Source: Escherichia coli
GTDB taxonomy: Bacteria; Pseudomonadota; Gammaproteobacteria; Enterobacterales; Enterobacteriaceae
DNA: 64,000 bases
Assembly: GCF_003334405.1 (NCBI RefSeq)
Contig: NZ_QOWM01000005.1
Strand: one strand, 5' to 3'
Below, one piece after another: positions 1-5,992 of the stretch. Each line of letters begins with the position of its first letter. Within the stretch, counting starts at the first letter, position 1. Made by a program: the position numbers and the translations under genes. The notes beneath the pieces are model-generated. The model did no database searches. It had not been told where the DNA came from and saw only the letters and a program-made list of their open reading frames with translations.

Positions 1-453
1 GAACTCGTTGATTTTGCCTGCACCTAACAGTTGGATCAGCTCCGCCAGCGCATTGTGATAAATATCGTAATTACGTTTGATCTCTGCCGCTGCGGCGGTG
101 CTCTGACGCGGGTCACGCGGCAACGCTTCGTAATCCGCCCAGTTTTTTTCCGCCTGTTTCAGCGAAATACTGGCACTCTCCATCAGCTCAGCAACGGTTG
201 AACCGCTACCAATATTATTCTGATCCATCATGTAGCGGATACCCGCGCGGTTGAGGGTGTTACGCGTCTGCAACAACGCGACCCAGCTGCCATTCAGCGT
301 GGATTGCTGCTGGCGAATGGTTTGTAAAACAGTGAAATTTTCTTTGTCATTCTTTAAGGCATTAAAGAACAGACCGCCTGATGTCAGTTGTAAAAGGCCA
401 AAAACGGCCAAAACCAGCAGTAAGCTGGTCACAATTTTGATACGTTTTAACAT
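1..453 (-). CDS. tsr: methyl-accepting chemotaxis protein I (serine sensor), N-terminal part; gene continues beyond window start
   Basis: Reverse translation from 453 gives [40 protein letters not shown]..., recognisable as the Tsr N-terminus; no stop before position 1. Confidence 0.85.
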
Positions 454-483: not shown

Positions 484-510
484 TTTTCGGCCAGGAAAGG
501 AAAAACTTTA
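484..510 (-). promoter_or_regulatory. sigma-28 (FliA)-type promoter upstream of tsr
   Basis: On the minus strand reads TAAAGTTT-N11-GCCGAAAA, matching the class 3 flagellar promoter consensus TAAAGTTT-N11-GCCGATAA. Confidence 0.55.
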
Positions 511-601
511 TGAATATCCCGCGGAGATTACGCCGAGTAATTTTATTCACACTCTGAATTTAAAAAGCCATTATTTACATAAATTACTCACAATATAAAT
601 A

Positions 602-617
602 TGTGATATGAATCACA
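602..617. promoter_or_regulatory. CRP-like binding site in the tsr/btsT divergent intergenic region
   Basis: TGTGA-tatgaa-TCACA, perfect match to the CRP core consensus, embedded in a longer palindrome 597-623. Confidence 0.5.
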
Positions 618-681
618 TATTTATCGTCACTTAAACGACGCCTTTGCCGCTCAACCGCAAAACTGACCGCTTACATCCCTA

Positions 682-710
682 AAATAACCACTCAGTTATT
701 TACCTTACTT
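682..710 (+). promoter_or_regulatory. BtsR (YehT, LytTR-type) direct-repeat binding site upstream of btsT
   Basis: ACCGCTTA-N13-ACCACTCA, matching the recalled motif ACC(G/A)CT(C/T)A repeated with a 13 bp spacer. Confidence 0.5.
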
Positions 711-829
711 TACGCGCGCGTAACTCTGGCAACATCACTACAGGATAGCGGTCAATTTACCTCCTCAAACGCAACGCAAACCTAGAACGGCTTCGGCCAA
801 CTATTAATCAATACATGCCAGGTTTTACT

Positions 830-5847: not shown

Positions 5848-5992
5848 TAGGTTTATCTCTTACGGGATTACGTCTTAAACAAGCATGAAAAAATAGCGTG
5901 CGCAAAAGTCGTTCTTTGCCTAAAATATCGCTATATATGGCGATATATAGCGAATAAAGTGAACGATGAATAACCATTTTGGTAAAGGCTTA

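Follow-up and report, generated by a model that had tools for sequence, protein, structure and literature searches.

A conserved array of CRP and BtsR-type sites upstream of btsT, next to a separate sigma-28 promoter of tsr, in the divergent tsr/btsT region of Escherichia coli

Near the start of the window, i.e., the entire 64-kb stretch of DNA that was analyzed, two genes diverge from an intergenic segment (454−829), which is the already characterized tsr/btsT control region of E. coli. The gene names tsr and btsT were taken from matching E. coli genomes annotated in RefSeq, among them K-12 MG1655, and the coordinates of the genes and of the features located between them are collected in Table 1. 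Between position 541 and the btsT ATG the sole difference from MG1655 is a C/T substitution at 587, while upstream of 541 an A/T substitution at 493 and a 1-bp indel following 538 set the two sequences apart. Subtracting the window position from 4592109 gives the MG1655 coordinate of any position from 541 onward. In E. coli PCN061, the record with the highest identity to the window, an IS1A insertion is present in the tsr/btsT neighborhood and the annotation splits tsr in two; the segment 300−1000 of the window is without IS1.

Table 1. Features of the tsr/btsT region in window coordinates; negative positions are feature centers numbered from the inferred btsT transcription start at 742.
Feature	Position	Strand	Details	Basis
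tsr, 5' coding part (serine chemoreceptor)	1..453	minus	start codon 453..451; runs off window start	sequence; gene annotated in matching RefSeq genomes of E. coli
sigma-28 (FliA/RpoF) promoter of tsr	484..510	minus	TAAAGTTT at 510..503, 11-nt spacer, GCCGAAAA at 491..484	motif scan
spacer separating the control modules of tsr and btsT, variable among alleles	515..594	no strand		allele comparison
perfect 13+4+13 palindrome with cAMP-CRP core	595..624	no strand	TGTGA 602−606, N6, TCACA 613−617; center −132.5	motif and palindrome scans, conservation
R0, putative third, upstream BtsR-type repeat GCCGCTCA	646..653	plus	center −92.5	at most one mismatch at this offset in 76/79 sequences
R1, BtsR (YehT) repeat ACCGCTTA	666..673	plus	center −72.5	79/79 sequences
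R2, BtsR (YehT) repeat ACCACTCA	687..694	plus	center −51.5	79/79 sequences
inferred extended −10 of the btsT promoter	727..735	plus	TG 727−728, one base, CAACAT 730−735	conservation in orthologues
inferred btsT transcription start	742 (MG1655 4591367)	plus	88-nt 5' UTR, 742−829	7 nt after conserved −10
btsT (formerly yjiY) CDS, pyruvate/H+ symporter, 716 aa	830..2980	plus	ATG 830	reading frame and RefSeq annotation

Regulation of btsT has been described previously. As stated in two papers, both citing Kraxenberger et al. 2012, expression of the gene requires BtsS/BtsR and also CRP-cAMP (PMC5431176, PMC10653868), and the activity of a PbtsT-lux reporter differs significantly between a crp deletion mutant and the wild type (PMC7730263, Fig. 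5A). The DNA bound by YehT/BtsR has been described as two direct repeats 13 bp apart (PMC4222967), and an oligonucleotide designated “yjiY YehT bs” (PMC4847170) is identical to window 641−697. An earlier sequence-only reading of this DNA had proposed dual control of btsT by cAMP-CRP and BtsS/BtsR, which is supported by the published requirement for both as well as by the comparative conservation described below. This dual control is already known, i.e., the reading was correct but ordinary.

The same reading had recognized a sigma-28-like promoter of tsr on the opposite strand, an assignment that is borne out. The element deviates at a single position from TAAAGTTT-N11-GCCGATAA, is found 31 nt upstream of the tsr ATG and is the sole match in the window with at most two mismatches (0.01 expected). 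In genomic SELEX, moreover, the RpoF (sigma-28) holoenzyme gave a peak between yjiY and tsr, for which tsr is marked as the target gene (PMC5493296). Both in its motif and in this RpoF peak, the tsr promoter resembles the sigma-28 (FliA) class-3 promoters of flagellar and chemotaxis genes, from which no difference was noted.

Upstream of btsT, the segment TGTGATATGAATCACA at 602−617 is the only perfect TGTGA-N6-TCACA core in the 64-kb window (0.04 expected). It had been described as lying about 215 bp upstream of btsT, within a palindrome of 27 bp that begins at 597. The core, its position inside a palindrome and the approximate distance all stand (the center, 609.5, was measured at 220.5 bp from the ATG), but the perfect palindrome is 30 bp long and begins at 595. 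Its two perfect arms of 13 nt each (595−607 and 612−624) are separated by a 4-nt center, and no other inverted repeat in the window has arms of at least 13 nt and a gap of at most 10 (0.05 expected from first-order Markov simulations). The 22-mer at 599−620 matches the CRP consensus AAATGTGATCTAGATCACATTT at 17 of 22 positions. A search of the accessible literature for a CRP footprint, a ChIP signal or a genomic SELEX entry for the predicted site at btsT/yjiY found none. When the arm length is relaxed to at least 11 nt, with perfect arms and the same maximum gap of 10, one further inverted repeat is found in the 64-kb window, i.e., the CGCTATATATG-GCGA-TATATAGCG region at 5928−5953.

To place these elements in a wider context, one genome per species was scanned, which yielded 80 orthologous btsT loci ranging from Escherichia to Erwinia, Rahnella and Pantoea. 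Enough upstream DNA for scoring was available in 78 of these loci, which together with the window gave 79 sequences. The CRP core displays no mismatch in 29, one mismatch in 46 and two mismatches in 4 of them, and its information content is 1.56 bits per position in TGTGA and 1.98 in TCACA, with 0.08 in the upstream flank. Matches to ACCRCTYA with at most one mismatch recur at three offsets from the CRP center: +35.5/+36.5 (76/79), +55.5 to +57.5 (79/79) and +75.5 to +78.5 (79/79). The distance between the CRP site and the repeats is nearly invariant across the 79 Enterobacterales sequences, while the sequence in between is free to vary. This combination of a strictly maintained spacing and variable intervening DNA points to a stereospecific, architectural role of CRP.

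In the window itself, ACCRCTYA-N13-ACCRCTYA is found at 666−694 with zero mismatches, as the sole match even when one mismatch is allowed, and it did not occur in 100 shuffles. BtsR-type direct repeats with an N13 spacer had been correctly identified from the sequence, but the distance assigned to them, about 120 bp upstream of btsT, was an underestimate, as the R1/R2 pair is located 164−136 bp upstream of the ATG. The motif string ACC[G/A]CT[C/T]A is said to be given in the abstract of the 2012 study by Kraxenberger. In many genera the strict N13 pattern fails because the R1−R2 spacer there is 12 bp long, not because the sites are absent. The spacer is 13 bp, as published for K-12, in Escherichia, Enterobacter and Kluyvera, whereas it is 12 bp in Salmonella, Citrobacter, Klebsiella and Raoultella.

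The most upstream of the three recurring positions, R0, is part of the published YehT binding-site oligonucleotide mentioned above. Its single mismatch to ACCRCTYA, a G for A, is shared by the window and K-12, and in the hpa+, O157-type and E04 alleles of E. coli the repeat is perfect (ACCGCTCA). The repeats start at 646, 666 and 687, i.e., they are 20−21 bp apart, with spacers of 12 bp (R0−R1) and 13 bp (R1−R2). The conserved positions suggest that btsT has three phased BtsR-type repeats rather than two. In contrast, two repeats are named in the accessible papers on the K-12 yjiY/btsT promoter, which was described by Kraxenberger et al. (2012, J Bacteriol 194:4272), was studied further in the Jung laboratory, and represents the same locus with the same 13-bp-spacer repeat and the same CRP dependence. 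Nothing was found in the accessible literature on the positions of the sites at btsT or on a third repeat.

We consider it a serious possibility, if not the one that we favor, that BtsR functions at R1 and R2 only and that R0 is either a relic that has been conserved or the site of a different factor. In the literature, the BtsR site is one pair of direct repeats separated by 13 bp (PMC4222967), two repeats are the typical description for LytTR regulators (PMC4064291), and R0 is mismatched in both K-12 and the window. This alternative has to account for the observation that R0, with at most one mismatch, is retained in 76 of the 79 sequences in the same orientation and with the same 20-bp phase. 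The information content of R0 (1.65 bits) equals that of R2 (1.65; R1, 1.82), compared to 0.27 for the CRP−R0 spacer and 0.54 for the R0−R1 spacer, where the values for R0 and R1 are somewhat inflated because the set was chosen for the presence of these two repeats, a choice that leaves the counts over 79 sequences unaffected. A relic would not be expected to withstand the divergence that is seen in the neighboring spacers.

A generic sigma-70 consensus scan identified no promoter near btsT and returned only two chance-level matches at 546−599. Downstream of R2, a conserved element is found: the sequence TGgCAACAT at 727−735 has the TGn, the A at position 2 and the T at position 6 of an extended −10 sigma-70 element, and 76 of the 77 distinct orthologues have TGnCAnn[A/C]T at 33−35 nt downstream of R2. 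The G at −14 is conserved in 77/77 and the T at −15 in 71/77; the A at −11 and the T at −7 are also found in 77/77, yet both are part of the pattern that was used to place the hexamer and are therefore not independent evidence. The nearest −35-like hexamer, TTTACG (709−714), is separated from the −10 element by only 15 bp and is not credible as a −35. The btsT promoter is thus probably without a working −35, as would be expected if an activator is needed.

The position of the putative start is consistent with the design of the original reporter, which is labeled “PbtsT −212/+88” in a strain table (PMC10653868). This label corresponds to 300 bp, and provided that the fragment ends at 829, the base preceding the ATG, which is an assumption of the argument, +1 would be at 742. 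From the agreement between the conserved −10 and the reporter label, we infer a btsT transcription start at about 742. A disagreement between motif positions and transcription starts had been named as grounds for rejecting the sequence-only reading, and no such conflict was found; with the start at 742 all sites would be located upstream of the core promoter, in positions suited to activation. Two other promoter candidates were discarded. The pair TTTACC (−35) and AACTCT (−10) is excluded, as the A at position 2 of its −10 is not conserved. The TGGCA segment was also considered as a sigma-54 element (TGGCAC-N5-TTGCA, GG-N10-GC), but in Salmonella and Klebsiella the conserved GC is found 13 nt after the GG, not 10 (counted by hand), and BtsR is not known to have an AAA+ domain.

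It is improbable, in our estimation, that the conserved (C/T)TGnCA at 726−731 is instead a −35 hexamer, which would move the start about 20 nt downstream, to about 760, and place the activator sites about 20 bp further upstream of it. In distant genera the segment reads TTGCCA or TTGTCA, a 5/6 match to TTGACA, and in some distant loci (L072, L079, L041) a reasonable −10 is found at 16−17 bp, but no acceptable −10 is present 16−18 bp downstream in Escherichia, Salmonella, Citrobacter, Klebsiella or Enterobacter. The A and T at positions 4−5 after the “CA” are conserved in a manner that is −10-like rather than −35-like (although they belong to the placing pattern), the published “+88” label fits a start at 742, and the R2 center would move to about −70, farther upstream than is typical of a LytTR activator.

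Between R2 and this −10 element, window 698−723 contains a strongly conserved block, ATTTACC-NN-ACTTTACGCGCGCG, which holds a perfect 14-bp palindrome, TTACGCGCGCGTAA (710−723), with an alternating (CG)4 tract. The block could be a spacer or UP-like element, the site of another factor or supercoiling-sensitive DNA. The predicted fold of the btsT 5' UTR displays no extra stability when compared to shuffled sequences (z = +1.1). The segment ACCTCCTC is found in this UTR at window 759−766 and likewise in many of the orthologous sequences.

Relative to the inferred start, the center of the CRP site at −132.5 coincides neither with the class I positions (−61.5, −71.5, −82.5 and −92.5) nor with the class II position (−41.5). 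For a CRP site this is an exceptionally distant position, and it is shifted by about 2.5 bp from the phase of the canonical −61.5 + 10.5n series, which makes a direct contact of the class I type unlikely. The position would fit an architecture in which CRP acts together with a co-dependent activator rather than a simple class I or class II promoter.

Of 5426 complete E. coli genomes, 5390 matched a 701-bp query spanning the tsr/btsT region, though the match was contiguous in only 3118. In other strains tsr and btsT are separated by different DNA, namely the hpa (4-hydroxyphenylacetate) cluster, a 543-bp hypothetical ORF (in strains of the O157:H7 type) or an oxidoreductase gene. When the 5426 genomes are classified by the allele of the upstream segment, 2633 are K-12-like (including a sub-allele at 90−95% identity in 589 genomes), 2261 are hpa-flanked and 363 are of the O157 type. 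The tsr−btsT spacer (window 515−646) is a hot spot for variation in gene content, with the variable genes situated between the sigma-28 promoter and the CRP site.

Five E. coli alleles, in which the upstream neighbor is tsr, hpaC, the O157-type ORF or the oxidoreductase gene, were aligned. Similarity is absent upstream of the CRP core, while the segment from R1 to the ATG is near-identical. Between the CRP core and R1, only the core itself and R0 are conserved, with the length of the stretch kept. In the hpa+ allele the terminator hairpin of hpaC adjoins the CRP site, and on the tsr side of the same allele the sigma-28 promoter is present whereas the CRP core is absent; the sigma-28 promoter is likewise kept beside tsr in the O157-type allele. 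Because conservation begins at the CRP core whatever the upstream neighbor, the CRP site is assigned to btsT rather than to tsr.

These alleles also bear on a second possibility, which we regard as very improbable: that the palindrome acts at tsr, either exclusively or in addition to btsT. Such a role is suggested by the geometry of the K-12-like allele, where the site is nearly equidistant from the two starts (about 133 bp to the predicted tsr start and 132.5 bp to that of btsT). Motility is, moreover, dependent on cAMP-CRP, which acts through flhDC. Nevertheless, the hpa+, O157-type and E04 alleles keep the site with btsT, while tsr is kilobases or other genes away. The absence of a CRP core on the tsr side of the hpa+ allele, the nearly invariant distance from the CRP site to the BtsR repeats in 79/79 sequences and the near-consensus sigma-28 promoter of tsr, which needs no activator, argue in the same direction. 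That the 30-bp palindrome is mainly a hairpin element, i.e., a terminator or the site of another dimeric protein with an incidental CRP-like core, is hardly conceivable even though its 13-nt perfect arms exceed what a CRP site needs, since information is concentrated in the core (1.56 to 1.98 bits) compared to the arm extensions 595−601 and 618−624 (0.26 and 0.80 bits), which are not conserved outside the K-12-like allele and are wholly different in other E. coli alleles, and since 400−900 is without a terminator-like site and an Rfam scan of window 300−1000 returned only two matches, both below the gathering threshold.

An additional element of the btsT leader is found in the hpa+ allele (L002:4166−4290; the insertion point corresponds to approximately window 799−812) and at several other loci, where about 125 bp are inserted in the btsT 5' UTR. 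The element is bounded by imperfect terminal inverted arms of 26 nt (73%), and at the loci that carry it the distance from the CRP site to the ATG is about 340 bp compared to 220. The element resembles an ERIC/IRU repeat.

It is very likely, in our judgment, that the intergenic region is composed of two independent modules, i.e., the sigma-28 promoter of tsr and a compact btsT module, extending from the CRP site to the ATG, with the CRP site, three repeats and an extended −10. According to this model, tsr would be driven by the sigma-28 class-3 flagellar promoter (510..484, minus strand). At btsT, the pyruvate-activated BtsS/BtsR system would load BtsR onto R0, R1 and R2. Given the 20−21-bp repeat period, the BtsR protomers would line the same face of the helix down to the polymerase, and the promoter-proximal BtsR would recruit RNA polymerase to a btsT promoter that is presumably unable to work alone. 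Also required is CRP-cAMP, whose site is centered 40 bp upstream of that of R0; it most likely acts in an architectural capacity, as at other promoters with a second essential activator, such that the DNA bend brings upstream DNA or the C-terminal domain of the RNA polymerase alpha subunit to the BtsR−polymerase complex. The outcome would be an AND gate that responds to external pyruvate in combination with the absence of preferred carbon sources. The need for both regulators and the DNA designated as the YehT site are published, the presence, rarity, conservation and rigid spacing of the motifs are observed in the sequences, and the role of R0, the position of +1 and the action of CRP from −132.5 are the hypothetical parts of the model.

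A more far-reaching proposition, on which we are evenly divided, is that the btsT module is rigid and self-contained across Enterobacterales. In this form of the model, CRP would be held about 40 bp, center to center, from the three-site array, BtsR would bind as a trimer or higher oligomer, CRP would act in a purely geometric manner from about −132.5, and the module would move intact when its upstream neighbor is replaced.

LytTR activator sites are located just upstream of promoters in which the −35 is poor or absent. Sites of this family have been described as two imperfect direct repeats of 8−13 bp, about 12 bp apart (PMC4064291), and the btsT repeats, with their spacers of 12 bp (R0−R1) and 13 bp (R1−R2), agree with this general description. 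Thus, in its repeats, their spacing and the weak −35, btsT resembles the LytTR activator sites of AgrA at agr P2/P3, ComE, PlnC/D, VirR and YpdB at yhjX, but these have two repeats, whereas btsT would have three phased repeats together with an obligatory upstream CRP site.

The combination of CRP with a second activator is known from the “class III” CRP promoters (araBAD, rhaBAD/rhaSR, uhpT, malK/malE), in which CRP is bound upstream of a specific, promoter-proximal activator and both are needed; in most of these promoters the CRP center is found at about −92 to −112. The btsT promoter is similar in that CRP is located upstream of a second activator and both are needed, but it differs in that the inferred CRP center, at −132.5, is further upstream and the partner is a response regulator of the LytTR family. 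In functional terms, a specific signal, i.e., external pyruvate sensed through BtsS/BtsR, and the global carbon status, signaled by cAMP-CRP, together switch on a high-affinity pyruvate transporter. This control logic has already been published, and the main value of the present analysis is to confirm what had been read from the sequence. The additions are modest and refine the model: a likely third repeat, the conserved spacing, a module that begins at the CRP site, and a probable extended −10 that would set +1 at 742.

Partial copies of the repeat motif are also found outside the three-site array. An inverted partial copy, AGCGGTCA, is located at 747−754 (inferred +6 to +13) in the early transcribed region, within arms (660−671 and 747−758) that are 92% complementary; other genera do not retain it as a BtsR-type match. 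This inverted ACCGCT copy was considered as a fourth BtsR site and rejected, as no reverse-strand position of ACCRCTYA recurs in three or more of the 79 sequences. A yhjX promoter oligonucleotide printed in PMC4847170 contains the paralogous YpdB site GGCATTTCAT-N11-GGCATTTCAT and, about 20−21 bp upstream of it, a third, degenerate copy (CGTCATTCAT). Both LytTR systems of E. coli, BtsR and YpdB, may therefore share a layout with three repeats.
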